This document shows positions 152 through 54,761 of a stretch of DNA of 64,000 nucleotides, piece by piece (the stretch's first letter is position 1; each line of letters opens with the position of its first letter). The DNA comes from an uncultured virus (IMG/VR IMGVR_UViG_3300048832_000103) (Duplodnaviria; Heunggongvirae; Uroviricota; Caudoviricetes): the IMG/VR virus record IMGVR_UViG_3300048832_000103; one strand, written 5' to 3'. The notes under the pieces are model-generated. The model made no database searches. It was not told the DNA's origin and was given only the letters and a program-made list of their open reading frames with translations. The position numbers and the translations under genes are program-made.

Positions 152-757
152 CTACCCTTTAGCTTTCCCACCGTCAAGCTCAAAAAACCTTTTTTTGAAT
201 TCCATGTAGTCTCTTCTCGGGTTCGCATGACACGTGTCCAGTTCCATTAGTCGGACCTCGAGGCCCTGCCTCTGGCCGATGTACTTGTTCAAGAGCAATC
301 GTCCGTAGTTTCGGAAAGGCCCCTCGGGAGCCAAGCTCGTGATTTCTCGAGCCATCTGTAAGTCGTCGGCATCATTTATAATTTGCAACTGACCTTTATG
401 CATGGGAACGCAGTCATATCGACGCCATATCAACTTCTGCCATCGGGCTTCGTACTCGTCGAGGTCCACGCCGAGCTGCTTAAGGTAGCGCTTCACCGGC
501 CGCGTGACGTCGCCCACATAGGTCTCATGGGCATCGTGCAAGAGGGCGGCGAGACGGAGCTCGTCGGGGACCAGACGAGACACTTCCAACGAGTGACGAG
601 CGACCGAGATGTGGGTCGATAGGTGTCCGTTGAACCGTAGGATTCCCGCCAGACTCCATGCAATATCTTCTATATCAATGTCTTCTGATTTAGGATCACT
701 TAGATCAACCCAAGCACCAGAAGACACACCTAGCCAACAGGGCTCATTTGAACTCAT
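152..757 (-). CDS. HD-domain phosphohydrolase (YfdR/YfbR-like 5'-deoxynucleotidase)
   Basis: DIEDIAWSLA..RFNGH, SVARHS and LLHDAHETYVGDV.RPVK motifs typical of phage HD nucleotidases. Confidence 0.85.
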   Translation of the reverse strand: MSSNEPCWLGVSSGAWVDLSDPKSEDIDIEDIAWSLAGILRFNGHLSTHISVARHSLEVSRLVPDELRLAALLHDAHETYVGDVTRPVKRYLKQLGVDLDEYEARWQKLIWRRYDCVPMHKGQLQIINDADDLQMAREITSLAPEGPFRNYGRLLLNKYIGQRQGLEVRLMELDTCHANPRRDYMEFKKRFFELDGGKAKG

Positions 758-1233
758 TTAGAAATTCCCCATAGCATACCAAAGGTTATCGTTCCTGCCG
801 CAAGTATACCTATACCTCCCCACTTTAACCCATTTTTGATTTTTCGAATCCTTTCGGCACGAGCATATTCCTTCTGCTGTTCGCCTACCAAAGCCCGCAA
901 CCGGCTAACTTCTAAATTACTGGCTTCTAATTGGCTCGCTCTTATTTCGGATGTTTGACCTACAACAGTCAATTCAGCCCTAGTGGTATCTAGCAGGACA
1001 TTCAATTCGTGATTTACATAGTGAAAATGCTTAGCTACCTCTATCCAGATAACAATTTTTCTGAATTCCTCGGTAGGATAGCACTCACGCAACCCCGAGG
1101 GTGTTTTTATCGTGTACCCATCGGGTACTTCAGGCAGCTCGTCGGCCCTCAGGGACCACGTCAAGGCTATCAAAGCCCAGAAAATTAGCCCGACGAGGAG
1201 GTCTTTCAGAAAATTAGTCAGCGCTCTTTCCAT
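754..1233 (-). CDS. Membrane protein with N-terminal signal/TM, coiled coil and C-terminal TM (possibly spanin-like)
   Basis: Hydrophobic N-terminus LLVGLIFWALIALTWS and C-terminal GGIGILAAGTITFGMLWG; start moved to ATG at 1233. Confidence 0.5.
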   Translation of the reverse strand: MERALTNFLKDLLVGLIFWALIALTWSLRADELPEVPDGYTIKTPSGLRECYPTEEFRKIVIWIEVAKHFHYVNHELNVLLDTTRAELTVVGQTSEIRASQLEASNLEVSRLRALVGEQQKEYARAERIRKIKNGLKWGGIGILAAGTITFGMLWGISK

Positions 1234-1597
1234 ATAAACGATCTTTGAGTTCCTCGTGGGTAGCGTTAGCCACTGATTTCCGGGTCTGTTCGAAGTCGGC
1301 TCGGGCATCTTGAATCACCTTCTCGACAATAGCGGCCTTGTCCTTCAAGGCTTTTTGCTGTCCTTTCAATTGGGCGATGGATTTGTCGCAGGATTTATTT
1401 AGGCTGTCAAGTGGGGCGTTCTTCGCTCGCTCGATGTAGTTCTCGGTCAACCTGCTTGAATTCAACATCCACCACAACCCTGCCACGGTGAGAAGAGCAA
1501 TCCATGGAAGGATCAATAGGAGTATCACCCACCATTTTTTGTTACGGAATAGACTTGTGGGGTCATACAATATTTGGTCCCATACATTTTTTATCAT
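1214..1597 (-). CDS. Single-pass membrane coiled-coil protein (possibly Rz/i-spanin-like)
   Basis: TM segment WWVILLLILPWIALLTVAGLWW followed by a helical heptad region. Confidence 0.5.
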   Translation of the reverse strand: MIKNVWDQILYDPTSLFRNKKWWVILLLILPWIALLTVAGLWWMLNSSRLTENYIERAKNAPLDSLNKSCDKSIAQLKGQQKALKDKAAIVEKVIQDARADFEQTRKSVANATHEELKDRLYGKSAD

Positions 1598-1608
1598 TCT
1601 GGGAACTC

Positions 1609-1875
1609 CTATGCCTGGTGCCGCGTGTTTGCTGAATCTAAAACGACTGTGACCGGACTATCGTCTACAAGTTCACCTATTATATGCTCACGACACATTA
1701 CCCAAGAGCGCCTATCGTTAGAACTCTCCGCTCGAGAAGCAATATCGAACAGAGCGCACCACGTTCCACACTGCGCAGACCCGTCACCATAAGGACAACC
1801 AAGCTTCCGACCATCCTCGGCTACCAGGATCTTGGTGGTCTTGGTGTTCTTCCGAATTAGGCTAACCCTCTTCAC
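1609..1875 (-). CDS. Small Cys-containing hypothetical protein
   Basis: GTG start overlaps the cysH-like stop (GTGA); CP..C..WC..C pattern. Confidence 0.55.
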   Translation of the reverse strand: MKRVSLIRKNTKTTKILVAEDGRKLGCPYGDGSAQCGTWCALFDIASRAESSNDRRSWVMCREHIIGELVDDSPVTVVLDSANTRHQA

Positions 1876-2498
1876 GTTTTCACCGCATGGATTCCGCACT
1901 CTAGCCTCTCACCGGCCCAGCGGCCAGAGCGCTCATCGTCCGAGGTCGGCAGGCTCGTGCAAGGCTGGCACCCAATCGACCGGTATCCCTGGCTGTGCAG
2001 CGGTTGCACTGGTACGTCGTTATCTCGAATGTATTTCCAGCATTGCTCGCTTGTCCAGTTTAGCATCGGAGCCAAACGGATCTTGCCAAACTGGTCAGGC
2101 TCGATTTCCCTTGTGTCCTTTCTCGTCGAGGCCTGGTCCCACCGAAGAGCGGAAACCCATGCCTGATAAGGCTGTAGCGCGCACCACAGTGGAAGAACCT
2201 TGTGCTCGGTGCAGCACTCTTGCGTCGGCGGGAGGTGCGTGCTCTGCGGGGGAGGTCCGACCCAGTGCAGGTCCAGATCCCATTCCCGGCCCATGAGGTT
2301 GGCGAAGTCCACGGTTTCACTGAACAGCTTGCCAGTGTCGATGGAAATGACCGGGACGTGCTCCCAGACCTTGCGGGCATGATCAAGCAGAACCATCCCT
2401 GAGTAGCCCCACGCTGTGGTGAAGATGACCTTGTCGTTGTACATGTCACGGTAGAAACTCAAAGTCTCGCGCAACCTATCAGACTTCTCTGTCACCAA
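1872..2498 (-). CDS. cysH: APS/PAPS reductase (4Fe-4S APS-reductase type)
   Basis: IDTGKLFSET, ECC..HKV.PL, R.DQ..TR, P.LNWT, GYRSIGCQPCT, ERSGRW and C-terminal ECGIH. Confidence 0.92.
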   Translation of the reverse strand: MVTEKSDRLRETLSFYRDMYNDKVIFTTAWGYSGMVLLDHARKVWEHVPVISIDTGKLFSETVDFANLMGREWDLDLHWVGPPPQSTHLPPTQECCTEHKVLPLWCALQPYQAWVSALRWDQASTRKDTREIEPDQFGKIRLAPMLNWTSEQCWKYIRDNDVPVQPLHSQGYRSIGCQPCTSLPTSDDERSGRWAGERLECGIHAVKT

Positions 2499-3262
2499 GG
2501 TACTGGTCCTTTCAGCGCTCCGGTGAGGTTGATCACGGGAGGTCTCTCGGTCTCACCATATTTCTTAGTCCATCTCCACCATCCTGCAAGGCCTACCGCG
2601 GCCTCGAGGCCGGGAGCAGGCAAGCAGTTCACTAAGCTCTGTAGGTGCTCCAAGGCGCGGTAAATCTCCGATGCCGAGACCTCGATAGCCTCGGGGAGCT
2701 CGGGCGCGTCGGCCAGAGCAGGCGCCCAACGAGGGATGAGATCGGGCTCGGGGCGCACGGGAATGACCACGGTACTTCGAGCTGGCCAAACGGCTTTGAC
2801 CGCCGCGCAACCATATCCGCCGCCTGTGGCCTGGAAGTAATGATCTGGCGGGCTATCACGGTACATTTCATGGACTTGCTGTAATATCTCTCGAGCCATA
2901 ATCTGATGAGCAATCATCTTCAATTGGTTGTTGCTTCCAGCGAATAAGATAGTCCTTCCCTTATCAGACATCTCATACTCGTCCATAACCTGCTTTATGA
3001 CACGAATCCGGGGAGTCTTATCGTCCCATGTGTAAACTACAACATCTAAATCTTTGCATATACTAGTTATAGCCTCACCAGTGTTACCACTGGTTGCTAC
3101 AATAATCGTTTTCACACCCTGCAAAGCCGCAAAATGTTTCACAACCACAGCTTCGCGGTATTTAAAAGACCCCGTTGGGAGCATATAATCACATTTCAGA
3201 TAAACCATTCGGCCGCAACCGTCATCTGATAGGATGAGGGGACTTCTTATCATTTCTTCCAT
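2492..3262 (-). CDS. Fold-type II PLP enzyme, cysteate synthase/threonine synthase-like (compact, 256 aa)
   Basis: LKCDYMLPTGSFKYREA (PLP lysine), ATSGNTG, PDHYFQATGGG (resembles the cysteate synthase PDHYFQAVGSG) and INLTG. Confidence 0.8.
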   Translation of the reverse strand: MEEMIRSPLILSDDGCGRMVYLKCDYMLPTGSFKYREAVVVKHFAALQGVKTIIVATSGNTGEAITSICKDLDVVVYTWDDKTPRIRVIKQVMDEYEMSDKGRTILFAGSNNQLKMIAHQIMAREILQQVHEMYRDSPPDHYFQATGGGYGCAAVKAVWPARSTVVIPVRPEPDLIPRWAPALADAPELPEAIEVSASEIYRALEHLQSLVNCLPAPGLEAAVGLAGWWRWTKKYGETERPPVINLTGALKGPVPW

Positions 3263-4062
3263 ACAACACCTTTGAATTGCGTGCCGGGGTTATGATTGAT
3301 TTCTATAATCACAAATTTATTATTTTTATCAAATGTTCCATCGACGGACCAATTTTGATTTCTATAACGTTTAACCTTTGGGACTATCTCTTTGTTTATC
3401 TGCTCGACTACTTCAGGAATGCCCCCAAGCTTCTCCCCAAAAGGAGCGGTCTCAAGAGATTTTTCTTTGACTACTTTAGCCGTATGAGAATCAATTGATT
3501 TCAAATCAATATCTTCTTTACTTCGAATAACACCCTCTAAGTCGACCCATATGTATTTTCTGTCCTTCCAGCCAGAGTTAGAGATTCCTGAATGTTCAAA
3601 ATACAGTGGCGTTAGGCCTATAAAGCTCACTCGGTCGTGCCCAATAAGTCGGATAACCGGGGGGCATCTAATATCATCGGTGAACTTGTGTAGCCGTTCA
3701 TGTGGGTAAATCCATTCCTCGGCAAACCACGAACGTACAGCCATTAATTTTTTTGGAGTGTTTAGCTTTATCTTTCTTATCCTATTTAGTTTGACCCTTA
3801 GCTTGTTAGGTGCAATTAAATCTTTATCTGGAAACATTATGAAACCTTCAGAAGTCTTCTCTAGCAGAGCTATGCCGCTGCTTTGACGACCACTCTGAGG
3901 TTTCCACACGTATTCTCCCATAGGGGCGTTCACTAGAGCCCCTACCGTAGCATAAAACCGCCCAGGATTAATCAAGTTGTTAGGATAAGAAAAAGAGGTA
4001 TTCTCGCTAAGCCAAAGCTTAGTGAAAATCTTGTTCCAAAACATTTTGGCATTTATTAACAT
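3250..4062 (-). CDS. ATP-grasp ligase paralog 4 (ATPgrasp_ST / alpha-L-glutamate ligase-like)
   Basis: NKIFTK.WL...YP, YVWKP.SGRQSSGI, WFAEEWI.PHE and VDG.FD...IIEINHNPG. Confidence 0.8.
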   Translation of the reverse strand: MLINAKMFWNKIFTKLWLSENTSFSYPNNLINPGRFYATVGALVNAPMGEYVWKPQSGRQSSGIALLEKTSEGFIMFPDKDLIAPNKLRVKLNRIRKIKLNTPKKLMAVRSWFAEEWIYPHERLHKFTDDIRCPPVIRLIGHDRVSFIGLTPLYFEHSGISNSGWKDRKYIWVDLEGVIRSKEDIDLKSIDSHTAKVVKEKSLETAPFGEKLGGIPEVVEQINKEIVPKVKRYRNQNWSVDGTFDKNNKFVIIEINHNPGTQFKGVVWKK

Positions 4063-4890
4063 CTATTTCTTCTTCCAAGTGACTCCTAAAAATGGGGTTC
4101 CTATTGCAGAGTTAATTTCGATAATAACAAACCGATTATTCTTATCAAAGACTCCATCAACAGACCAGCACTTGTTATGAACTAGCTTCAATTTCGGACT
4201 AATTTCACTATTCACTTGATCGATGATTTCCTTAACGCCCTCAATTTTTTGGCCACACAAGTCCGTGTCAATACGCCTATCCACAACAGACTTTAGTGTT
4301 TTCTTGTCAGCACTAGACAGGTCCATTTCATCGGTGTGTCTTACGACACCATTAAAATCTAACCATAGATACTTCCGATGGTCCCAACCAAAGGAAGATA
4401 TGCCGACCTCGTTAAAGTATACTGGCGAAATCACAACAAAATGAACTTTACTGCGGCCGCAAATACGAATAACTGGCGGACAGCGCATGTCATCCGTAAA
4501 CGGTTTCAAGCGTTCGTGTGGCTTAATCCATTCCTCGGCAAACCACCTTCTATGACCTCGAATCTCTTTGGCCTCGGAAATAGTTAACCGCTTTATCCTA
4601 ATTAACTCTTCAATAGTGGCTTGCAAAGATAATACATCACTAGATGGAAATATCTTGTATCCGTCGGCAGTTTTATCCAGTAGAGCTACTCCCCAACCCT
4701 TGCGGCCAAAGCATGGCTTCCACACATATTCCCCAACGGGTAACTCCTCTAATTTATTGATAGAAACGTCGAAATAATCGAGCTCTATGCAGTTCTTAGG
4801 ATAAGCAAATGTAGTATTTTCGCTAAGCCATTGCTTAGTATAAATCTTGTTTGCAAACCTTTTAGGTATTATCCTATGATTAATAATCAT
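4063..4890 (-). CDS. ATP-grasp ligase paralog 3
   Basis: NKIYTK.WL, YVWKPCFGRKGWGV, WFAEEWI.PHE and VDGVFD..IEINSAIG; ATG overlaps the upstream stop. Confidence 0.8.
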   Translation of the reverse strand: MIINHRIIPKRFANKIYTKQWLSENTTFAYPKNCIELDYFDVSINKLEELPVGEYVWKPCFGRKGWGVALLDKTADGYKIFPSSDVLSLQATIEELIRIKRLTISEAKEIRGHRRWFAEEWIKPHERLKPFTDDMRCPPVIRICGRSKVHFVVISPVYFNEVGISSFGWDHRKYLWLDFNGVVRHTDEMDLSSADKKTLKSVVDRRIDTDLCGQKIEGVKEIIDQVNSEISPKLKLVHNKCWSVDGVFDKNNRFVIIEINSAIGTPFLGVTWKKK

Positions 4891-5729
4891 GGCCTTCCCG
4901 ACTTCCCTTTCCATGTAACACCCAAAAATCCTGGTGCGGCCATTTTATTAATCTCGACGACAATGAATCTGTCATCTTTATCAAAGATTCCATCAACAGA
5001 CCAGCTTCGGAACTTGTTAAATTTCAGCTTAGGGCTAATTTCTCGATTTATTTGGTTTATCAGTTCTCTAACACCTTCTATTTTTTCACCGTAAAAAGGT
5101 GTTTCTACACTTCTATCTGGTACAATTCGCTTAGTTAAAGCATTAGATTTTTTTATATTTAGCGCCTCTTCCGGTATAATCACGCCATCGAAATCGAGCC
5201 ATATATACTTGCGTTGTTTCCAACCCGTCGGCGCTATACCTGACAAATTGAGATACACTGGCGACAACGTCACAAAATGGACTCTATTCTGACCACAAAC
5301 GCGAATAAGTGGGGGCAACCTTTTGTCATCGGTGAATTTATGGAAGCGTTCATGTGGATAAATCCACTCTTCTGCAAACCATTTTTTAAATCTTCCGGCT
5401 TCACGGACCTCTGAAATAGATAATCTTTTTATCCTAGTCAGTTCACAAACTAATTCTTCCGAAGACATAATTTTGTCGGACGGGTATACTTTAAAACCTT
5501 CTACGTTTTTTTCTACTAGGGCTACACCCCAGCTTTTTCTACCATAGCAAGGCTTCCAAACATAGTTACCACAAGGTATATCAAGAAACCGGCTAGAAGC
5601 TTTACCGAAATCATCTAAATCTATAACATTCTTAGGATAGGCAAAGGTTGTATTAGCCTGCAACCATTCCTTGGTAAAAATCTTATCGTCGAATCTTGCA
5701 GTGTTGAGACCATCCTTATTTATTCGCAT
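4887..5729 (-). CDS. ATP-grasp ligase paralog 2
   Basis: DDKIFTK.WL, YVWKPCYGRKSWGV, WFAEEWI.PHE and VDGIFD..VEINKMAAPG. Confidence 0.8.
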   Translation of the reverse strand: MRINKDGLNTARFDDKIFTKEWLQANTTFAYPKNVIDLDDFGKASSRFLDIPCGNYVWKPCYGRKSWGVALVEKNVEGFKVYPSDKIMSSEELVCELTRIKRLSISEVREAGRFKKWFAEEWIYPHERFHKFTDDKRLPPLIRVCGQNRVHFVTLSPVYLNLSGIAPTGWKQRKYIWLDFDGVIIPEEALNIKKSNALTKRIVPDRSVETPFYGEKIEGVRELINQINREISPKLKFNKFRSWSVDGIFDKDDRFIVVEINKMAAPGFLGVTWKGKSGRP

Positions 5730-6628
5730 GGTCGCCTCAACCCGTCGTAAGTGTTTAGATGCTTCACGTTTGGAGCATGCTCAATCTCAATGCAAACGAA
5801 GTCGACCGAACCATCCTTGTTCTGCCGATAGACCCCATCGAACGCAAACAATGCGTGAGGGCTCATTGCCAAGCATATCTCATTTTTTATTGAGTCTAGG
5901 ATCTTGTCGAAGAACGGCAAGACCATCCCCGTAACGTCCTTCACCGTCCCGTAGTTCTCGATGGACCAAGGCAGGTCGTTCGGCACGTCTGGGCGGGTCT
6001 GTAGGAGCTCTCCCGCGTAGTTGAAACAGATGCGCCGAGCCCCACCCTGCAAGGTTCCCCGGCCTCGAGAGGCTTTCGTCGGTATGTGGATTTCACCGAA
6101 GTGGAAATCTCCTCGGCTCATGATGATTCTCACGAGCGGATTGAATGGGGCGTCATACTCAAGGGTTTTCAGTTCTTCGGGTGCAGGCGAGATGTACTCT
6201 TCCACAATCCACTTAAGAGCTGTCGGAGCTTTGGGGATGTCTGAAACAATATCAAGGAACAACTCGTTGGAATCAAGTAGGCGTAAATTAGCATCCCTGA
6301 ATCCAATATCATTTGGTTCCTTCCAGACCATACGAACTCCCCTAGAACGGGACAAGTTAACAGGCTTCACTATCACCCAACGTTCTGTAGGACAGCTCGT
6401 ACCTGTCAACCATGCACGCAACTCGGCCCAAGTAGCCGAGCAAACTAGCGTAGGAGGAATATTAAACGACGTATTGGCTAACAGCCAGTTCTTAGTCCAA
6501 ACCTTATTCCATGTAGACTTTAATATTTTCCTGTATGGTGCAGGTTCATTCTTTCTTCGCTCTGCACGCAACCGTTTAGGATTTATAACATGAGGCCTTT
6601 TCTGAGTCGTTACTACAACCTTACCCAT
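5720..6628 (-). CDS. ATP-grasp ligase paralog 1 (most similar to alpha-L-glutamate ligase-like proteins)
   Basis: NKVWTK.WL, IVKPVNLSRSRGV, WIVEEYI, PTKASRGRGTLQGGA (compare PT..S.GKANLHQGA) and IEIEHAP; start moved to 6628. Confidence 0.8.
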   Translation of the reverse strand: MGKVVVTTQKRPHVINPKRLRAERRKNEPAPYRKILKSTWNKVWTKNWLLANTSFNIPPTLVCSATWAELRAWLTGTSCPTERWVIVKPVNLSRSRGVRMVWKEPNDIGFRDANLRLLDSNELFLDIVSDIPKAPTALKWIVEEYISPAPEELKTLEYDAPFNPLVRIIMSRGDFHFGEIHIPTKASRGRGTLQGGARRICFNYAGELLQTRPDVPNDLPWSIENYGTVKDVTGMVLPFFDKILDSIKNEICLAMSPHALFAFDGVYRQNKDGSVDFVCIEIEHAPNVKHLNTYDGLRRPCE

Positions 6629-7010
6629 CTTTTTGCCTCTTTCGTGGTGTTTTAGAACGTACAATATGCCGAGGTGCTTTTTTACCTTCGGGGTCCGCTT
6701 TGGCTTGCCGAGCTTTCTTTGCTCTTGCCGCTCGCTCGAAAGGTCCAGTTCCATGTTCAGACATGAACTTGCCAGGGGAACTGGATAAGATTTGATTATC
6801 ACGCAACTCTGCTAACCCACAAAGGTCGCAAGAACTTCCAAGCAGGCGGTTTCCGCACTTCTCGCAGGCCTTGGTACCCATCCAACACACAAAACACAGA
6901 TCACCCACGTGAGTGTCTCTTATGGGCATCTTTGAGCGTTGACATTTCCTACACGCCCTTATTGTAAGGGGATAATGTCCCCAACTCTTACTTGTAAAGG
7001 TTGTGGTCAC
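6621..7010 (-). CDS. Multi-CxxC zinc-finger protein with basic tail
   Basis: CRKC, CFVC, CEKC and CDLC; overlaps both neighbouring genes. Confidence 0.6.
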   Translation of the reverse strand: MTTTFTSKSWGHYPLTIRACRKCQRSKMPIRDTHVGDLCFVCWMGTKACEKCGNRLLGSSCDLCGLAELRDNQILSSSPGKFMSEHGTGPFERAARAKKARQAKADPEGKKAPRHIVRSKTPRKRQKDG

Positions 7011-7326: not shown

Positions 7327-9837
7327 TTATTTAGGGACGCGGAGATCAAGATGGTTGGGGCCTAGCTTGCCCTCGACCTCGAAGGCCATGTGATACGTCT
7401 TGCCGGTGATAGGCGAGGTCAGCTTCTTCGAGCAGCGCATCGAGCTCATGAGATCCTCGAGGGCCTGCTCGGCGTAGTCGACACTGACCTCGGCGCGAAG
7501 ATCGTCATGAAGCTGCATAATTGGCCATACTCTCGTGTGGTAGTCACCTTTCTCTTCCAATAATTGCATCCATCTGATTGTAGCAGTGTCTACAATGTCT
7601 GCCGCGCCGCCCTGAACCGGGTGGTTCGTGGCCTCGGTATCAGGCACACCCCCCAGGGGCCAGCGCCTTCGCCGGCCAAGCCAGGGCGTTCGGAGCTCAA
7701 AGGTCCGGTTTGCGATTTCAGTGACGTAGGCAGAATACTCATTGACATTTTGGTATTTTGCTCTCTTACGGGCCTGCATGACCTGGACCTCTTTGAAAGT
7801 GATCCCAGGAACATCCTCGCGCACGTTCTCATACAAAGTCTGTGGTCCAGCTCGATAGATGTCACCGAAGGTCACAGGCTTGGAGTTCGTCCGCAAGAGC
7901 TTGCGTTGATCGGTGCTCGCTCTATGCCAGGTCTCACCGAAATAAACCTCAGCAAACATAGAGTGTACGTCAGTCCCATTGATGAAGGCCTCGATGAGAT
8001 CCTCTTGGCCGGCGAGCAGCACCGATATGCGAAGCTCGAGCGCTGCGTAGTCCGCTGAGATGATGCAGCGCCCTGGTGCTGGCACGAGCATACGTCGCAT
8101 GGACCTCGGCCAGTTCTGCACAGCGGGCTTTGTGCCGAAGCGTCCTGAAGGCGTCGCGGTCTTGTTCCAGCGCGTGTGAATGCGCCCGTCCGAGCCGACC
8201 TCTTGACCCAAACCGTCGATGTAGGTCGAGAACAATTTCGTTTTGGTTCGATAGGCCTGCAAGAGCTCGACGAACGGATGATCTCTGAACTCAAAAAGGC
8301 TGGCAGCATCGGTCGAAAGCTGGCCACTTTTCGTGACCTTTTTGGGTACTAAATTGAACTGCTCAACGAGCACCTTCTGAAGTTGTGGGGGACTGTTCGG
8401 ATTGAAGTCGCGACTCCCCACGAGAGACCATATATTCTCTTTCAGGCATGCGATGCTCTCGCTGAATTCCTTATGCAGCACAAGGCGCGCATCCTCGTCG
8501 ACTCCGAGTCCGACCTTCTCCCAGTCCATAGCGTAGCGCGTGATAATCCGATCTGTCTCGTACACATTCAGAACGTTCTCACGACGCATCTCTTGCCGCA
8601 ATTTGTCATGCAGAAGGATCGTGTTCGCGGTGTCCGCTCCGTTGTAGTAGAGCAGCGCGGGGATGTCCTCGTCGCTCACGTTGATGAACCGCTTATCGTA
8701 GTATTCCTTCCAGGGCTCGACCGGGAAAAATTGAGTCGCCACAGCTTGCAAGTCGTGAGGTGTTTTTGGGTAGATCGCGTGGTGCTCGAGGAACGTGTCT
8801 TCGATCTTCCCAGCAATCTGGATTTCCATCATTCGCTCGATGATCGGGACGTCGAAAGCCATGTTGTGGAACACCCACGTTCGCTCAGGATCTTGGAAGG
8901 CGATCTTGAGTGCATTCCAAGAGGCTTGCCAATCTTCCGTGGTGAAGTAAGAGCGCAACCCTGGGCATGGAATGGACACCGCGAGGGGCTTCTCTTCGCC
9001 TGTCTCGTCATCATAGATGAGACGCGCCAAACCTACTGTCGTGATCCCGCATTCGCGCACGTCCAGTCCATCTGTCTCGAGGTCCACGGCTACGGGTTCT
9101 GAAGGTAACTCAAGCACTCGTTGAACAGCTTCAAGGGTGAAGGCCTCGACCACGGGCTGGCGCAACGCAAGCTTCTCGTTGGCCAAGAGGTGCGCCTTCT
9201 CGACGTCGGCAACGAACAGATCCAACCACACTTGCTTCGCGGGTGAGCGCAGCATAGCCGCTGGATGGATAGTCGACACGACGAGCGTTCCCCACGTCTC
9301 TTCGGCGGTGGCCTCGGTCTGTGCTGGCGGCTCCACTATCTTTGGGTCAAAGTCAACAGGAAACTGTGCAGTCTCGGACGTCAAGACCTCGAGGGGATAC
9401 TTGATACTAAAGTCTTGCCAAGTAGTAGCTCCTCGGAACTTCTCAACGCCTTTGAGGCCCGTCGTCGACTGCAATGCAATACCACCCAAAGTCAAGATCG
9501 CCCGCGGCTTCACTTCGACAATGTTGGCCTCGAGCTCCCCCTGACAACACTCTCGAGCAACCTTCATTGCGGCATCCGATGGTTTAGTCCCGCCGCTGAA
9601 GTTGCATCGAATCGCATTCGTGATATGGGTCGCCTCAATTGACGTGTGCAGATGGTCTAAAACCGTCTTCAAGATGTGTCCCGAGGCCCCCACAAAGGGA
9701 ACTCCCCGCTTGACCTCTTCGCGGCCCGGGCTCTCCCCGATGACCAGCAAGTTGTTCCACGCGACGAGGGGGTGCTTGTCCATGACTTCCAATCCATTCT
9801 CGAAGAATGGGCATGTAGTCTGATTACATGGTTTCAT
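7327..9837 (-). CDS. polA: Family A DNA polymerase with N-terminal UDG family-4-like domain (SPO1-like architecture) and 3'-5' exonuclease
   Basis: GESPG.EE...G.PFVG.SG, TNAIRC and HPA (UDG4); DLETDGL and FHNMAFD (exonuclease); DYAALELR, K..TFG.IY and HDD (polymerase motifs A, B, C). Confidence 0.95.
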   Translation of the reverse strand: MKPCNQTTCPFFENGLEVMDKHPLVAWNNLLVIGESPGREEVKRGVPFVGASGHILKTVLDHLHTSIEATHITNAIRCNFSGGTKPSDAAMKVARECCQGELEANIVEVKPRAILTLGGIALQSTTGLKGVEKFRGATTWQDFSIKYPLEVLTSETAQFPVDFDPKIVEPPAQTEATAEETWGTLVVSTIHPAAMLRSPAKQVWLDLFVADVEKAHLLANEKLALRQPVVEAFTLEAVQRVLELPSEPVAVDLETDGLDVRECGITTVGLARLIYDDETGEEKPLAVSIPCPGLRSYFTTEDWQASWNALKIAFQDPERTWVFHNMAFDVPIIERMMEIQIAGKIEDTFLEHHAIYPKTPHDLQAVATQFFPVEPWKEYYDKRFINVSDEDIPALLYYNGADTANTILLHDKLRQEMRRENVLNVYETDRIITRYAMDWEKVGLGVDEDARLVLHKEFSESIACLKENIWSLVGSRDFNPNSPPQLQKVLVEQFNLVPKKVTKSGQLSTDAASLFEFRDHPFVELLQAYRTKTKLFSTYIDGLGQEVGSDGRIHTRWNKTATPSGRFGTKPAVQNWPRSMRRMLVPAPGRCIISADYAALELRISVLLAGQEDLIEAFINGTDVHSMFAEVYFGETWHRASTDQRKLLRTNSKPVTFGDIYRAGPQTLYENVREDVPGITFKEVQVMQARKRAKYQNVNEYSAYVTEIANRTFELRTPWLGRRRRWPLGGVPDTEATNHPVQGGAADIVDTATIRWMQLLEEKGDYHTRVWPIMQLHDDLRAEVSVDYAEQALEDLMSSMRCSKKLTSPITGKTYHMAFEVEGKLGPNHLDLRVPK

Positions 9838-9882
9838 TGTTCTTCTCCCTTGGGGGGCGAGTGACTAGAAATTGTCTAAAAC

Positions 9883-9980
9883 TGGGTGGCACGAGCAGGA
9901 TTCGAACCTTCCACGACGGCACTACAGCCAAGGAGAAGAGAGACAACCGGCTTGTCCCGTCGCATCACCAGATCGTGCCA
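9883..9980 (-). ncRNA. tRNA-like RNA resembling the tmRNA tRNA-like domain without a coding region
   Basis: Minus strand: TGGCACGA/TCGTGCCA acceptor stem plus C-CCA, T arm GAAGG-TTCGAAT-CCTGC, stemless D region TCTGGTGATG and helix CGACGG/CCGTCG; no canonical anticodon arm. Confidence 0.6.
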
Positions 9981-9983
9981 GAA

Positions 9984-10178
9984 GGAGCCTTGAACCGTTG
10001 CAGGTTAGTTGGGCAACTGGCGCATCTTGTGGAAGAGATACAGCCTGCAACGACAAGGGCTCCATAAAGCGCCAGTGGCCAATTTAATGTCCAGCGAACT
10101 GGCAACCTGGACAACGGAAGGATTAAGGGCACGGTCCTTCCATGGCTCAAGCAAGGCGTGACTCTAAGCTTGAGCCAT
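9984..10178 (-). ncRNA. Structured intergenic RNA (three hairpins plus a large pseudoknot)
   Basis: Inverted repeats 10142-10152/10168-10178, 10116-10123/10134-10141, 10088-10094/10107-10113 and 9984-10063; loop 10009-10023 is complementary to 10069-10082. Confidence 0.5.
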
Positions 10179-10186
10179 TCTCGCCG

Positions 10187-10747
10187 CTAACGCCCTCGCC
10201 GCATAACTGTGGGCGCTGGAGCCGGTCTTGGTTGTGGAGCCGTCGTGGGCTGTGCCACGGCAGGCGCCGCCGCTACAGGAGCCGCTACGGCTGCTACCGG
10301 GGGCTCTTCCGCAGGAGCGTGCGAAATGGGAATGATGTTCGAAAGGCTTACCTTCGGATTGCCATCCGCACCAGTCTTGATCTTCACGTCCGCTGAGAAG
10401 GTCGTGTCGATGAGATTTTGCGTGTCCGCGTCCTCGCCGGCCTCGAGCAGATCATACCGACCCCATGCCTTGAGATAGCCGACCGTCTGCTCGATAGGCC
10501 TGCCCCACTTGCCAAGCTTGTCGCTCAGGCCGAGGTACTGACTGTGAACCTTGGTCCCTGGGTCATCGCCGCTGATTTGGACGCACTTCGCAGTGACGTA
10601 GCGCTCGCCGGCATGCTCCCCTTGAGAGTTTACGCCCTCGGTGATACCGGTAATCTGGAATTCCTGCCGGCCTGGGTCTGGTGGAATCCAGCCAGCTCCC
10701 GGAACCTTACCCTCAAACTCGTCCATCTTGATACCAAAAACGCCCAT
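10187..10747 (-). CDS. Probable phage ssDNA-binding protein (DUF669-like)
   Basis: Beta-rich OB-like pattern with a Pro/Ala tail; located downstream of the Sak4-like ATPase and nuclease. Confidence 0.6.
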   Translation of the reverse strand: MGVFGIKMDEFEGKVPGAGWIPPDPGRQEFQITGITEGVNSQGEHAGERYVTAKCVQISGDDPGTKVHSQYLGLSDKLGKWGRPIEQTVGYLKAWGRYDLLEAGEDADTQNLIDTTFSADVKIKTGADGNPKVSLSNIIPISHAPAEEPPVAAVAAPVAAAPAVAQPTTAPQPRPAPAPTVMRRGR

Positions 10748-10833
10748 TGTGTGTCTCTCCTTGTCAGTGATTGGTTTAGGTTTGATCCTTCTGGCATACC
10801 CAGTATCAGGGTGTCAACCAAAAAATACACCCG

Positions 10834-11436
10834 TTAGGATTTTCGAAGACTGTTCAGAATACTAAAAGTTATCCTTGCTGTAGCGCGAGCATCCTCTAAG
10901 GCATCATGAGCATGTAACAGTTCAATTTTCATATTTTTTGCCGTTGTTTCCAGCTTGTAATCTAATGGCTCTATGTTACGTATTGCAAAGTATAACATTG
11001 CAAATTGCATCGCGTCCCATACACGCATGTCCATTGGCAAGAAAATATTATAAAACCTGCAAACGTTCAGAATGAACGGATGATCGAACTTAGCCGCGTT
11101 GTAGCCACAACCTTGCGCGACGTAGTAACCTTTACCACTCTTGGCTATGCGCTTCTGATCGGTGAACCGTCCAACCCAACCAGCAAACCTATTCAGGGCT
11201 AAGCCTCTGTTAACGCCTTCCAAGCCCCATATTTCTGGGTCATAACAATTAGTAAATCCAGACTCTTTCATGCTATTTAGAGAAGCTACTCCCTTTTCAG
11301 TAGGTAAAAGCTTCACCTCGAAGGAAGAAATCTCCCTTCCTGTCAAACTATCCATACAAATAGCACCTATTTGTATGATTTCATCTTTGGAAATGTCTAC
11401 ACCCGTCGTTTCAAGGTCAAAAATTACTACGTTCAT
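10834..11436 (-). CDS. DEDDh 3'-5' exonuclease (DnaQ-like)
   Basis: IFDLETTG, GYN..KFD and HDALED motifs. Confidence 0.92.
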   Translation of the reverse strand: MNVVIFDLETTGVDISKDEIIQIGAICMDSLTGREISSFEVKLLPTEKGVASLNSMKESGFTNCYDPEIWGLEGVNRGLALNRFAGWVGRFTDQKRIAKSGKGYYVAQGCGYNAAKFDHPFILNVCRFYNIFLPMDMRVWDAMQFAMLYFAIRNIEPLDYKLETTAKNMKIELLHAHDALEDARATARITFSILNSLRKS

Positions 11437-27827: not shown

Positions 27828-28700
27828 ATGGGAAAGATGAAATACGTGCCCCACTGGATTCATTCCCGTGTGGTTGTTACATCGATAGGCGACGTTATAG
27901 CCGATCCTGAAGCCTTCATGAACAAGACCATGTGGCCGTTCAAGATCGAGCATCTAACAATCTTCGGTTATCCCCTAGATGTGGCGAATAACTTTTGGCG
28001 TTGGGGTGGTATCGGACCACTTGTTCAGGGTGAAATTGGTATCAGTGGTGCAACCGACGTGAACCTCGTGCCCGCTTATGTGAGCGCTTCATTTGGCCGA
28101 AAAGAGCCGCATCTTCAAACGGGCGCGTTCATGCAGGGAACAACCATGAAGTTCAAACATCCGTATTTGCTCCCACGTGATAGTGGGTTCAATGTCGAGT
28201 GTACTTTGAACATTGATGATTGTGGCACAAACACCTTGGCCACTGCTATGAAGCATGGAATAACGGTGTTTGGCACAAAGGTGCAATCAAATAAGCCTGC
28301 CATGTTTGCGGGTTTGTTCAGACATTTGAACATGCCCACAGGAAGCTCTTTCTCTGTTGAGACGGCAGACCTCTTGAATGATGGTGAAGAAGACGTGTAT
28401 GTCCAGAGCATGCAATTGACGCATCCTATGGCAGACATGCAAAACATCCTTATGGGTGTTTACTGGAAAATAAATCCGATGTCTGGCGTGACTTGGATGG
28501 ACTCACCCATACATATTTCAGGAATTACCCCCTACACTCAAGGGGTGTTTTTACAAAGGGGTATCGCACCATTCTCGTTGACTCCGCTCGAGAACACCTA
28601 CCTTTATCGACGGCAACGGCTTGGAATCAAGTTGACACCTCTGGTGACAGAAGATCAACCCGTCAACTTGACGCTCTTTGGATATTTGGAGGTCGAGTGA
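27828..28700 (+). CDS. Capsid-like protein A (two tandem jelly-roll-like repeats)
   Basis: AGGAGG RBS; repeated F..PY.L......V and L.lFG motifs in both halves; paralog of the next two ORFs. Confidence 0.65.
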   Translation: MGKMKYVPHWIHSRVVVTSIGDVIADPEAFMNKTMWPFKIEHLTIFGYPLDVANNFWRWGGIGPLVQGEIGISGATDVNLVPAYVSASFGRKEPHLQTGAFMQGTTMKFKHPYLLPRDSGFNVECTLNIDDCGTNTLATAMKHGITVFGTKVQSNKPAMFAGLFRHLNMPTGSSFSVETADLLNDGEEDVYVQSMQLTHPMADMQNILMGVYWKINPMSGVTWMDSPIHISGITPYTQGVFLQRGIAPFSLTPLENTYLYRRQRLGIKLTPLVTEDQPVNLTLFGYLEVE

Positions 28701-43743: not shown

Positions 43744-45891
43744 GTGGCTTTAGAGACTAAAGATGAAATTGGGATCGCTGCGTTAGCAGCAGTCACCGTG
43801 GGCGGGATTGTCTACTATCTTACTAAAAACTCTGCCGGTAACGCCGAAATACTTCAAGCTGCAATAACTGAAGATAAAAAGAAGATAGTTACTATCCAGT
43901 CTGTTCAGAAGATGACTCCGTTAGATAAATCCATCTTGGATAGGCAGTTCACCACGAAGATAATTAAGACTATATCCAAGCCAGTTCTTCCAACATTCAA
44001 AGAAGTGTCAGGATTTTCCAACGAACCACGCATGAACAGTGGCTTGTTGGGCAAACTTGTCGCAGCTTATTGGGCTTACGCACAAACCAGATTATGGTAC
44101 ATGACGCGCTGCAAGCAATACCATCCATTCGACGACACCCCGCAGTGGTTGGCAAGGGATGCTGCCCATGGCGGTCACGATATGGACAAAGCTCACTACA
44201 AAGAGCTCATGAAGACCGACCGAGGAACCTGGCCGATAGGCGTTCCTCGGTCATTTATCTTGAACCGCTTTGAAGGTGAGAATCCTTCGAAGTTCAACAA
44301 GTACCAGAGATACAACTCTTTAGACCTGACATTCCCAAACTGGTCTATGCCTTTTAACGGATTCGACTGCGTTCGAACACAGGCATCGCTTAAGCATGCC
44401 CATATTGCCAGTGGCGCGGGTTATAAGACCGGTTGCTGGACTCGCTGTGGATGGAGAAGACCTTTTGGATCGTCTCATACAGGGTGTGTTCCTGCGATGT
44501 GTCCAAGACCTCTCCCAACAAGATGGTTTGCGGACATTAATTGGAAGATAAAGACTGAAAGAACCTCGTCTTATTTTACTAATTACGAACCCTTCACAAT
44601 AGGCAAAAAGTTCGATGGCCAGGTTATAAGTAATCAACTTGTAGTGACAAGAGGTTACAAGTACCAAGATGGGCCATGGGAAGATGATAAGGCTTTTGCG
44701 GGCATAGTTGAGAAGAATTACTACAAAGTAGGATTGCCCATAATTGGCGGCTACCCTGGAAGAATATGGGGAAAGGTGTCCGCCAGTGACCGTGCCGCCG
44801 CAAGGTATTTGATAAAAGTTCCTCAAGACTTCTCAAAGAGATACTCTCTTTCGAACAAGGCAACTAAAGAAGACGAAAAAAGCGTTTCAGACAAGTTTAT
44901 AAAAGAACTGCATCGGTATTATCATAGGGGTTACAACCTAGTTAATACCTGCCTAGATATTCTAATAGACCGTAAGCATTTTGATTTGGAGAAGGAATTT
45001 CCAAAGTTTGTTAAGCATTGCAACTGGTGGTGGATCTTACCGCCTAACAAGGCAATGCTGTCAAATGTAAGAGATAAGGACAATGAAATTATTCGCATGC
45101 CGCGCTTTTCAGATATTGGCGGTGGCAATATGGGTCTCGGAGATGTTACGTCCGAGTATCTTGTCAGCTATGTCATGAAGCTAACGCCCCCACCGGGAAC
45201 TATCCCACCGTGGGAAGATAAAGGCCCATTATGGTTATGGCCGAGCACAGCAGGCCAAATGACCTTGATAGGTGCTCCGACTATACCGTATCAGCCCGCA
45301 GCAGGTTCTTATATCACGGGTGACGGTAACTATCTTAGAAGCTCTGCCACGAATGCGTGGAATAGTTGGAATAATATGTTTGAGTATATGCTAGCCGCTC
45401 TAAATGAGGCTATCTATGAGTATGTAATGCAAGAAGCCGGTGGGGCTATTGCCGGTCAAGTTACCAAAACGGCCGCTGCTTGGGCAGAGAATTTAGGAAT
45501 TGACATACTAGAGCAACTTCAAGATAAGCTTGGAGGCGACCTTGGCGGCATAATGGATTTAGGTTCTAAGGTTGCGGCCTTCGCGGGTCTAGTGGAAAAT
45601 ATTGACATAGCGGACAGTTTAAATAAAACAATAAAGAAGTCTTTCGAGGGAACAGCCTTAAACACATATGATCTGTTAAAAAAATACCTGAAAGGAACTG
45701 TTGACGGGATGTTCCCCGATGAGTTGCGCAAAGCTAGAGAACTGCTAGACACGGGTATGTCCGAGCTGCGCTCGTGGGGATGGCACGATGACCTTATCGG
45801 CGAACTAGGCTCAGTTGGCAGTAGATACGGTGATAATGGTATTAAAGCATTAAAGTCTAAATATGGGTATAACGTTCAAAAGTTTGGTTGA
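43744..45891 (+). CDS. Large N-terminally anchored protein of unknown function
   Basis: 715-aa ORF; TM IGIAALAAVTVGGIVYYL; aromatic/Cys-rich middle and helical C-terminus. Confidence 0.75.
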   Translation: MALETKDEIGIAALAAVTVGGIVYYLTKNSAGNAEILQAAITEDKKKIVTIQSVQKMTPLDKSILDRQFTTKIIKTISKPVLPTFKEVSGFSNEPRMNSGLLGKLVAAYWAYAQTRLWYMTRCKQYHPFDDTPQWLARDAAHGGHDMDKAHYKELMKTDRGTWPIGVPRSFILNRFEGENPSKFNKYQRYNSLDLTFPNWSMPFNGFDCVRTQASLKHAHIASGAGYKTGCWTRCGWRRPFGSSHTGCVPAMCPRPLPTRWFADINWKIKTERTSSYFTNYEPFTIGKKFDGQVISNQLVVTRGYKYQDGPWEDDKAFAGIVEKNYYKVGLPIIGGYPGRIWGKVSASDRAAARYLIKVPQDFSKRYSLSNKATKEDEKSVSDKFIKELHRYYHRGYNLVNTCLDILIDRKHFDLEKEFPKFVKHCNWWWILPPNKAMLSNVRDKDNEIIRMPRFSDIGGGNMGLGDVTSEYLVSYVMKLTPPPGTIPPWEDKGPLWLWPSTAGQMTLIGAPTIPYQPAAGSYITGDGNYLRSSATNAWNSWNNMFEYMLAALNEAIYEYVMQEAGGAIAGQVTKTAAAWAENLGIDILEQLQDKLGGDLGGIMDLGSKVAAFAGLVENIDIADSLNKTIKKSFEGTALNTYDLLKKYLKGTVDGMFPDELRKARELLDTGMSELRSWGWHDDLIGELGSVGSRYGDNGIKALKSKYGYNVQKFG

Positions 45892-48221: not shown

Positions 48222-48944
48222 TTATAAAATAGCTAGCAGTTCGCAGAAAATTCCACAGTCATCGAGTATTGGTTTTGAATGGCGCCCCTCATTAGGATCT
48301 AGCTCATCGAGGTATGTTCCTTTTATACACGAATGACCTATTTTCTTTTCTAGTTCCGCCCTGCTAGCAAAAATTTCTGGAAAATCCACTCTGATATGAT
48401 TCCAGTAACCTTTGCCCCCCTTCACGCATCCAACGCAATTGTTATTTGAGTATCCTATATCGTACATGGCAGGTCTTTTAATGTTCGAAGCTGCTAGAAT
48501 CTTATGCGCCTGTTCTTTTGATACTTGCTGTTCTACAAGGGGAAATACGTGATCTTGTTCTGGCATAGAGTCTTGTAGCCGTTGGCATCGATCAGATTCG
48601 TTGTAGTCCATTCCCCAAACATAGGTTAGTTTTTCATTTACCGGTTGCTCATATTCCCATTGCTTTCGCACCTTGCGTTTGAGAAGTCTCGTGCAGGCGG
48701 CGCCGCCAATGCCATTTATGTACCCCTTACCGCCAGCGGCAAGACAAGCATTTTCAACAGTCTTTAAGGGAGATTGCAGTATTTCAATAGGTTTTTCAAA
48801 CCAGGCTTCGCAATCTTTGACAAAGCGCAAGGTGTCTGGGTGCTGGTCTTCTATGTGAGTGTATAGAATTTTGTCTATTTTGGCGATTGCCAGCTTTGTG
48901 GCCACGGCACTGGACACCCCGGCAGAAAACCACGAGACTATCAT
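48222..48944 (-). CDS. Phage PAPS-reductase-family (PP-loop) protein
   Basis: SWFSAGVSSA, HPD..RF, CT..LK, FPL, P.MY..GY.NNNC.GCVKGG.GYW and CG.FC. Confidence 0.8.
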   Translation of the reverse strand: MIVSWFSAGVSSAVATKLAIAKIDKILYTHIEDQHPDTLRFVKDCEAWFEKPIEILQSPLKTVENACLAAGGKGYINGIGGAACTRLLKRKVRKQWEYEQPVNEKLTYVWGMDYNESDRCQRLQDSMPEQDHVFPLVEQQVSKEQAHKILAASNIKRPAMYDIGYSNNNCVGCVKGGKGYWNHIRVDFPEIFASRAELEKKIGHSCIKGTYLDELDPNEGRHSKPILDDCGIFCELLAIL

Positions 48945-53978: not shown

Positions 53979-54761
53979 TTAGTCAATTAAAAACCCATAC
54001 TTTCTTGCCAGTCTAGGCCCATCACTACTATATAGCGCTTTCCAAAGAAGGCGAACACTATTACCACCAAACTGAACGATATGGAATTTACTTTTACGTG
54101 TTAAACTGCCAACTTCCCGAAACGTTCGCCAGCACCAGTCCCGAAATCCGTCAATTACAGTGGGATGCTTTGCTATTTTGGCGCATAAACCGCCATTTTT
54201 CCTTCTATGAAAACACCCATCTCCATCAAACAAACCCCGATAATAATGACACTCTAAATCCTCTCTCAAACATATCCGCTGTGCCTTATATGTTTTCCGT
54301 GGGACAACCCCCCACAACAAAAGCTGACTAGCGATATCGGGTGCCGTTACGCGAAGCGATATCATTTCTGATACTAATCCAGATTTTCGACGACAACTTC
54401 TCGGTATAACTGGCCCAGTATATTGTATAAACGATGCTAATCCGTCAACAAGCTCTCTGTCCTTACTATGCAATTCGAGAGATACTAACCCTCTATCAGA
54501 CACGCTTCCATCCGCCGCAAGAAGACCTGCCCAGTACGCTGTTACAGGTTCGAAATGTTCAAACGCATCATGCCTATAAGTGTATTTTCTATTTCTATCA
54601 GAAATTGTTCTTCTTTCAACACCAGCTTTTTCTAACCATTTCCTGATAGTCTCGCCACTTACGCCAAAATCTCGCGCAATCCTTGAACAATGCTCTCCAC
54701 GCTCATACCTTTGTATGATTTCTTGTACGTTAGTAAGCTCAAACTCGGACGACGAAATCAT
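53979..54761 (-). CDS. Free-standing LAGLIDADG homing endonuclease with N-terminal HTH
   Basis: AYWAGLLAADGSV and YYRGLFDGDGCF; IARDFGVSGETIRKWL. Confidence 0.9.
   Translation of the reverse strand: MISSSEFELTNVQEIIQRYERGEHCSRIARDFGVSGETIRKWLEKAGVERRTISDRNRKYTYRHDAFEHFEPVTAYWAGLLAADGSVSDRGLVSLELHSKDRELVDGLASFIQYTGPVIPRSCRRKSGLVSEMISLRVTAPDIASQLLLWGVVPRKTYKAQRICLREDLECHYYRGLFDGDGCFHRRKNGGLCAKIAKHPTVIDGFRDWCWRTFREVGSLTRKSKFHIVQFGGNSVRLLWKALYSSDGPRLARKYGFLID

Follow-up and report, generated by a model that had tools for sequence, protein, structure and literature searches.

The stretch of DNA analysed here (the window; 64,000 nucleotides, nt) comes from an uncultured virus of the Caudoviricetes (IMG/VR IMGVR_UViG_3300048832_000103). 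On its minus strand, at 9980–9883, it carries an element that resembles a transfer RNA (tRNA), and 45 nt downstream of this element begins a gene for a family A DNA polymerase (polA). Our results show that the element is a tRNA mimic without D arm and anticodon, shaped like the tRNA-like domain (TLD) of transfer-messenger RNA (tmRNA). It is a real RNA structure kept by selection, since its helices have undergone compensatory changes, its pairing far exceeds that of controls, and a covariance model built from its close relatives finds a more distant homologue. As to its role, the reading best supported by the sequence is that of a 'punctuation' module for the ribonucleases RNase P and RNase Z, which would release a tRNA-like small RNA. 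We advance this reading tentatively, and would rate it at somewhat less than an even chance.

Structure and conservation of the element

Read directly from the sequence, the minus-strand layout of the element is UGGCACGA-UC-UGGUGAUGCGACGG-(37 nt)-CCGUCG-UG-GAAGG-UUCGAAU-CCUGC-UCGUGCCA-CCCA. In the acceptor, UGGCACGA (9980–9973) pairs with UCGUGCCA (9894–9887), with eight possible pairs, and CCCA (9886–9883) follows. An earlier note on this DNA, made from the letters alone, had described a T arm with the loop UUCGAAU and one stem mismatch, the lack of a D stem, and a CGACGG/CCGUCG helix enclosing about 37 nt. All three descriptions hold. The T arm GAAGG-UUCGAAU-CCUGC lies at 9911–9895 and has a single A.G mismatch in the window copy; no D stem can be formed, and UCUGGUGAU is the linker between the acceptor and the CGACGG/CCGUCG helix; and this helix closes exactly 37 nt (9956–9920). 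The overall plan is thus a 7-bp acceptor, a short GG-bearing linker, a long helix, a linker of about 1 nt, a T arm with canonical T loop, and A73, which is the full architecture of a TLD. The parts of the element and its 3' flank are:

9980, minus: U(-1); UA in 6/6 sequences; can pair with A73; predicted site of RNase P cleavage immediately on its 3' side
9973–9979, minus: acceptor stem, 5' strand GGCACGA, positions 1–7; pairs with 9894–9888
9964–9972, minus: D-loop analogue UCUGGUGAU, without D stem; UGG (columns T14 G15 G16) invariant in 6/6
9947–9963, minus: central (P2-like) helix, 5' strand, in the place of the tRNA anticodon arm; covarying
9932–9946, minus: apical pyrimidine loop UUGUCUCUCUUCUCC, containing CUCC (anti-Shine-Dalgarno-like)
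9913–9931, minus: central (P2-like) helix, 3' strand; covarying
9895–9911, minus: T arm, 5-bp stem GAAGG/CCUGC and loop UUCGAAU
9888–9894, minus: acceptor stem, 3' strand UCGUGCC, positions 66–72; covarying
9883–9887, minus: invariant A73 and C74, with a tail that varies; ACCCA in the window
9876–9882, minus: U-rich tract GUUUUAG immediately 3' of the element, a putative RNase E or 3'-processing site; U run in 5/6 homologues

The earlier note had proposed an 8-bp acceptor stem and an encoded CCA. Eight pairs can indeed form in the window, but the acceptor register is probably 7 bp (G1...A7/U66...C72, with invariant A73, C74 and U(-1)), because in tRNA the T stem and the acceptor stem follow each other without a gap. 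In this register, the first U:A pair of the 8-bp reading becomes the -1:73 pair. The window also contains CCCA, but an encoded CCA is found in only one of the six family members in either register. Following the stem, the six copies have the tails ACCCA, ACUCG (in three copies), ACUUG and ACCAA, and the tails of variant contigs are mostly like the forms without CCA.

A polymerase-based search yielded three viral contigs and four metagenome contigs. One of the viral contigs (G001) is 100% identical to the window across the gap between the genes, while one metagenome contig (L012) has no DNA upstream of the polymerase gene and was therefore left out. Six distinct copies were compared: the window, L003, L009, L010, L011 and L005. 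All six sit between the same two same-strand genes, one for a 186-aa protein and the other for a fused uracil-DNA glycosylase (UDG), exonuclease and polymerase. The polymerases of the close members are 91–93% identical to that of the window, and the polymerase of L005 is 60–63% identical.

In the six-row alignment, 91.8% of 159 cells form standard pairs, compared to 27.7–51.8% with slid partners, and compensatory changes occur at 17 of the 28 pairs. None of 500 shuffles reached these values. Covariation among homologs, a check proposed in the earlier note, is therefore present, and it extends to every helix: 3 of 8 pairs of the acceptor helix (in which 97.9% of cells pair), 7 of 9 pairs of the lower central helix, 3 of 6 pairs of the upper central helix, and 4 of 5 pairs of the T stem. 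The pair G53-C61 is GC in 6/6, below T loops that read UUCGAAU, UUCAAUU or UUCAAUG. By comparison, the acceptor pair adjoining the T stem is weak (A-U in four copies, G.U in one, G/A in one, and A/C in a contig variant). At the family level, the central part is an ordinary covarying helix, and the linker (8–9 nt) is invariant only at UGG. Contigs from four public DNA runs contain further variants that fit the variation of the family, including a compensated change from G-C to A-U. G.U pairs are tolerated where the opposite strand would have C/A mismatches, which indicates an RNA read from the minus strand.

A covariance model made from the five close copies recovered L005 at the expected place and at full length (22.9 bits, E 3.6e-6, 701 nt), while a negative control of 78 unrelated phage loci gave it no match at E≤1. 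A covariance-model search also found no second copy in the window. In line with selection, intergenic identity exceeded identity at four-fold sites of polA in 4/5 comparisons (0.80–0.86 versus 0.69–0.72, and 0.51–0.53 versus 0.38). The fold energy of the single window sequence is unexceptional (z -1.12); the single-sequence folds of L011 and L005 regain the three-way shape unaided. Structure, conservation, covariation and fixed position of the element are thereby established.

Further searches left the family at this size. The polA protein and its alignment retrieved the same three viral contigs, as did the upstream protein, which gave no further members. The genome collection contained no relatives, and the phage database had no match by DNA. 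By protein, it returned 460 records, all below 60% identity, and the nearest cultured phage polymerases among those listed were less than 32% identical. A degenerate pattern over linker and T arm found five stretches, of which two are known members and three are unrelated pieces of tRNAs or attachment sites. A 15-mer of the domain upstream of the element (described below) occurred in 81 stretches, and the model, run on 80 of these, found only the two known contigs. Covariance model R1 was applied to the sequence already collected.

Directly 5' of the tRNA-like element lies a second conserved structure of about 200 nt:

9984–10176, minus: conserved structured domain
10176–10144, minus: hairpin H1
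10141–10116, minus: hairpin H2
10112–10089, minus: pseudoknot-forming hairpin H3
10063–9984, minus: long hairpin P4 (GGAGCC.../...GGCUCC)

In this domain, 93.3% of cells pair, compared to 32–49% in slid controls, with compensatory changes at 10 of the 43 pairs. From the end of P4 to U(-1) there are 4 nt, so that UUCU alone stands between the domain and the tRNA-like element. The H3 loop GCCAGU can pair with a downstream ACUGGC; alternatively, ACUGGCGC can pair with the loop of the long helix, over 13 bp in L011. The two pseudoknot pairings of ACUGGC are mutually exclusive, the one being backed by L005 and the other by the 13-bp version of L011, which suggests that the domain may adopt two exclusive conformations. 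No Rfam family matches the domain.

Relation to tRNAs and tmRNAs

The element shares with ordinary tRNAs and with the selenocysteine tRNA (tRNA-Sec) an acceptor stem, a T arm and a GG able to meet the T loop, and its possible eighth acceptor pair recalls bacterial tRNA-Sec. It differs from both in lacking a D stem and a 7-nt anticodon loop, the apical loop being 15 nt. ARAGORN reported no tRNA at the element, and Rfam at gathering thresholds had no match in the 64 kb. In a permissive Rfam scan of 9600–10400, the sole match on the element was a weak tRNA-Sec (15.6 bits versus a threshold of 47, E 4.5). The same family (RF01852), whose members have an 8/5 stack, a 6-bp D stem and a long variable arm, scored 20.7 bits on L011 against the same threshold, and a D stem is absent here. 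The tRNA family RF00005 matched in none of three phage records, one of which is 94% complete and represents a relative without tRNA genes. An ordinary tRNA is thus ruled out. A decayed tRNA is ruled out as well, since decay would not keep pairing through compensatory changes.

The earlier note had named such an ordinary or decayed tRNA, and a copy of a host tRNA 3' end serving as phage attachment site (attP), as alternatives to its own reading. ARAGORN and RF00005 gave no sign of the former. As for the latter, the 22-nt string from T loop to acceptor had no match in 185,579 species genomes (one per species). Together with a signal acting at the DNA level (e.g., a replication origin), these alternatives can point to the tRNA-like T loop and acceptor and to a site within a replication module. 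Yet, the compensatory changes persist where polA is only 60–63% identical, the relatives lack tRNA genes, no integrase turned up among the 79 open reading frames (ORFs) scanned, and the G.U pairs are strand-specific. This group of readings is largely refuted, and we consider it highly improbable.

Several other candidates were rejected. A tagging tmRNA is ruled out because there is no reading frame with a conserved stop, in agreement with the lack of a tag ORF reported in the earlier note. The mini-ORF MRQLPN* of the window cannot be a hidden tag, since its stop is lost in relatives. The conserved UAA in GUUAAA ends a frame in H, L or R, and is explained by RNA pairing. An intron-split tRNA would still need a D stem, and none can be formed. 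Finally, a mimic of the YrlA or Y RNA type has no Rfam match, and neither TROVE nor RtcB turned up among the 79 ORFs.

Two side observations concern tRNAs. The only tRNA called by ARAGORN in the window is a doubtful tRNA-Asn (GTT) at 44980–45053 on the plus strand, inside a 715-aa ORF (43744–45891). It is without Rfam support, RF00005 finds no tRNA in a near-identical record, and the call is probably false. The locus L014, on an 88,953-bp IMG/VR contig of an unrelated phage, contains a normal tRNA and next to it, at 586–705 on the minus strand of the locus, a tRNA-like sequence about 120 nt in length. The T arm and acceptor stem of the latter are good, and a long insert takes the place of its D and anticodon arms; it is possibly another non-decoding tRNA mimic.

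Anticodon-less TLD-type mimics are already known in phages. The precedent is a TLD-only ('CDS-less') tmRNA in Mycobacterium phage DS6A, as mentioned in PMC4131195 and PMC11915505 with reference to Mao et al. 2009. We located it at 28478–28560 of JN698994, between gp33 and a gene annotated as DNA polymerase III (gp34); it is unannotated in the GenBank record. As a positive control, it reached 43.2 bits (E 6.5e-14) with the tmRNA family RF00023. G3.U70 and A73 are present, an encoded CCA is not, and ARAGORN misses this element too. Both elements are phage-encoded and combine a 7-bp acceptor, A73, a canonical T arm and the absence of a D stem with a GG-bearing linker that contains UGGUG in each. 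In both, the helix closes only a short insert (20 nt in DS6A, 37 nt here), there is no tag ORF and no encoded CCA (but for one of the six copies here, in either register), and a DNA polymerase gene follows directly. With only two cases, this shared position may be coincidence.

In contrast to the present family, DS6A has a GGGG acceptor with G3.U70 and passes RF00023. The central helix described here has about twice the length and carries a conserved CU-rich loop, and the element is fused to a pseudoknotted domain of about 200 nt. Covariance model R1 gave DS6A 14.8 bits, which is below its scores for ordinary tRNAs (21–24 bits). The likeness therefore lies in shape rather than in detectable common sequence. 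Reduced tmRNAs without the mRNA-like part have also been described outside phages, in jakobid mitochondria and as plastid forms of about 65 bp (PMC11915505). These likewise consist of a tRNA-like domain only, without a tag frame. According to the same source, they are organellar, recognisable as tmRNA homologues and co-occur with SmpB, whereas the present element is phage-borne, has no detectable tmRNA homology and comes from a phage without an SmpB gene.

By analogy with the mini-tmRNA of DS6A, for which the same was proposed, the element might bind host SmpB (possibly also EF-Tu or the ribosome) and titrate or block trans-translation during infection. The common architecture and the common place before a DNA polymerase gene speak for this explanation, as do the window sequences GAUCUGG and CGACGGGA, which match the RF00023 consensus, and the G3.U70 pair of L005, which in the 7-bp register occurs together with A73. 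However, RF00023 had no match at E≤10 in the window (9600–10400), in L005 (2200–2520) or in L011 (1130–1510, where one lower-scoring match of the same clan was not displayed), against the 43.2 bits of DS6A. Of the alanine identity elements, A73 is present in 6/6, but position 3–70 is C-G in 5/6 and G.U only in L005; the lack of G3.U70 that the earlier note reported is thus true of the window and of all but one of its relatives. The tmRNA-like CGAC to which that note pointed does occur in the window, but the other five copies have CGGC, CGGU, CGGC, CGGU and UGUG instead, so that GAC at the helix base is peculiar to the window. The tandem G.A/A.G pairs at the base of tmRNA helix P2a (consensus GAC...GGA) are absent as well, the base consisting of G.U, C-G and G-C with Watson-Crick covariation. 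In addition, the conserved apical loop has no tmRNA counterpart, and an SmpB gene was found in none of the three phage records searched. Taken together, we regard a role as SmpB decoy as rather unlikely.

Processing, pairing and other possible roles

Enzymes that process tRNA ends, such as RNase P and RNase Z, read U(-1), the 12-bp stack of acceptor and T stem, the T loop with its GG partner, A73 and C74. The invariant parts of the family are U(-1), G2-C71, A73, C74, U54-U55-C56-R57-A58 with G53-C61, and the linker UGG, while the stack of 7+5 bp is kept. The element is a non-decoding acceptor/T-arm structure between two same-strand cistrons. A scan of 9600–10900 found no promoter-like site, and its sole terminator-like site falls inside the element. 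It is this agreement between invariant positions and processing determinants, together with the fixed place between cistrons and the lack of a promoter, that favours a processing module. The variability of the CCA fits removal of the trailer followed by CCA addition. The earlier note had left three options side by side: a decoy for SmpB, a decoy for tRNA-targeting defence nucleases, and an RNase P/Z processing signal. The last of these fits the conserved features. Nothing supports the nuclease decoy, and the element has no anticodon-like loop.

The cuts, the enzymes that make them and the consequences are predicted as follows. The element would be transcribed within the minus-strand replication operon, and host RNase P would cut between U(-1) and G1. 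This would leave the upstream message ending in the pseudoknotted domain, which may protect its 3' end. RNase Z or RNase E could then cut after A73 or in the U tract, which would free the polA message and release a tRNA-like small RNA of about 93 nt. The pyrimidine loop of this RNA, being kept by selection, probably has a second role, for instance in pairing with purine runs that resemble Shine-Dalgarno sequences.

There are precedents for such processing. RNase P is described as cutting polycistronic mRNAs, precursors of phage regulatory RNAs and of tmRNA, and tRNA-like 3' modules such as that of MALAT1, which yields mascRNA (PMC4919922), and plant mitochondrial t-elements are presented as comparable substrates (PMC1920247). 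Like the present element, the t-elements and MALAT1/mascRNA are non-decoding tRNA-like structures within longer transcripts. In the accounts cited, cuts by RNase P and RNase Z at these structures make the ends of neighbouring RNAs, and MALAT1 has a structured element that protects its 3' end directly 5' of the tRNA-like part, much as the pseudoknotted domain is placed here. In contrast, these systems are eukaryotic or organellar, whereas cleavage of the present element is predicted from its sequence, and the triple helix of MALAT1 has no demonstrated equivalent in the upstream domain.

Several points weigh against a processing module. L005 and one natural variant have a mismatch at the acceptor pair that adjoins the T stem, intergenic identity in L011 equals the neutral estimate (0.67 versus 0.68), and the T arm is missing from the minimum-energy fold of the window itself. 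The search of sequencing runs listed no RNA run containing the window stretch. Moreover, neither the central helix of about 16 bp nor the sequence conservation of the 15-nt loop would be required of a signal for processing alone.

The loop deserves separate attention, because its conservation indicates that there is more to the element than a cut site. Across the five close members, UUGUCUCUCUUCUCC has hardly changed, while the stem below it varies freely; the apex of L005 is different. As judged from this pattern, the loop is under sequence constraint. A potential partner lies downstream:

9842–9851, minus: polA Shine-Dalgarno region AAGGGAGAAG, with complementarity to the apical loop

The element might accordingly be an anti-Shine-Dalgarno riboregulator, acting in cis or in trans, in which the CU-rich loop pairs with the ribosome-binding site of polA 80–90 nt downstream or with other purine-rich sites, and in which processing of the tRNA-like body frees or switches the regulator. 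The model for this is the C4 antisense RNA of phages P1 and P7, which Hartmann et al. (1995) reportedly found to be processed by RNase P. It is said to be excised from an operon leader by way of a tRNA-like acceptor/T-type stack, and to act on a downstream ribosome-binding site of the same transcript. The parallel is a phage regulatory RNA, proposed in the present case, that is processed by RNase P and acts on a downstream ribosome-binding region. Besides the near constancy of the loop above a variable stem, this explanation can draw on the CUCC present in 6/6 close to the 3' side of the apical region, and on the duplex of the loop with the polA start region (-15.1 kcal/mol), which ranks second among 74 start regions with a median of -8.45. 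In L011, loop and Shine-Dalgarno sequence both differ, yet they are again complementary (8 bp). The specificity is weak, however, as 5.8% of shuffled loops pair equally well and complementarity between polypurine and polypyrimidine tracts is expected by chance. L003 and L010 have lost the extended complementarity and keep pairing with the Shine-Dalgarno core alone (-8.8 and -9.3 kcal/mol), and the CUCC of L005 is buried in a small hairpin. The window offers no longer target (8 matches with up to 3 mismatches versus 5.8 expected). In contrast to C4, the complementarity is short and statistically weak, and Rfam has no match at the element apart from the weak tRNA-Sec. We consider this riboregulator improbable.

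It is equally doubtful that the tRNA-like part belongs, as a domain, to one stable non-coding RNA of about 300 nt that acts as a whole, e.g., as a protein-binding scaffold. Such an RNA would explain why both halves are conserved and covary, why they are always adjacent with only UUCU between them, and why neither half matches a known Rfam family. Against it, no promoter or terminator brackets the region, Pfam reveals no RNA-binding or RNA-modifying gene among the 79 ORFs and hence no evident partner, and the exact conservation of U(-1), A73 and C74 at the junction points to a cut.

Elements of these readings can also be combined, into a phage RNA device of two parts. Here, the pseudoknotted domain would be a cap that guards the upstream 3' end, while the TLD-shaped mimic, released by RNase P and not charged with alanine, would act on ribosomes or ribosome-binding sites through its anti-Shine-Dalgarno loop. 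This combination seems improbable to us as well. If true, the device would time polymerase synthesis or interfere with the rescue of host translation, and it would be a previously undescribed counterpart, in a bacterial virus, of the MALAT1/mascRNA arrangement joined to a riboregulator.

Several features set the present family apart from the known phage mimics. Both alanine identity and a tmRNA sequence signature are missing, a conserved pyrimidine loop tops the long helix, a new structured domain of about 200 nt is joined to the element, and the place before the polymerase gene is constant, in a phage that has no tRNAs. Among phage-encoded anticodon-less tRNA mimics, DS6A is the one tested case, and their purpose is debated between inhibition of rescue, processing signals and decoys. 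The family offers a clean comparative case in this debate, as the tmRNA-specific marks and the alanine identity are gone while selection has kept the shape. It thereby allows a shape recognised by tRNA-processing enzymes to be told apart from mimicry of tmRNA. With it comes a new structured RNA, about 300 nt long and found in phages of wetland and soil, that lies outside every Rfam family.

Genomic surroundings

The element lies within a 349-nt gap (9838–10186) in a long run of minus-strand genes, and is flanked by:

7327–9837, minus: UDG, 3'-5' exonuclease and family A DNA polymerase in one protein of 836 aa (Pfam DNA_pol_A 1.6e-64, UDG 1.5e-15, exonuclease 2.8e-9)
10187–10747, minus: upstream gene, 186 aa, syntenic in relatives and 51% identical to the neighbour in L005 (E 4e-55)

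The product of the upstream gene has no Pfam or PHROG match. Other genes nearby encode an RNase T-type exonuclease, a dCMP deaminase, an AAA_24 ATPase and a PD-(D/E)XK nuclease, and further neighbours a Gam-like protein, an SNF2 helicase and a primase. This neighbourhood is a phage replication module.

Downstream of polA, the run at 152–6802 on the minus strand comprises a deoxynucleotidase-like HD protein (152–757), a PAPS-reductase-domain protein (1872–2498), a PLP-dependent enzyme (2492–3262) and four ORFs without family match. These genes may form a module for the modification of DNA or nucleotides. A second PAPS-reductase-like ORF is found at 48222–48944. Elsewhere in the window, the ORF at 53979–54761 on the minus strand combines LAGLIDADG-like and helix-turn-helix domains with a PHROG endonuclease match, and probably encodes a homing endonuclease carried by the phage.

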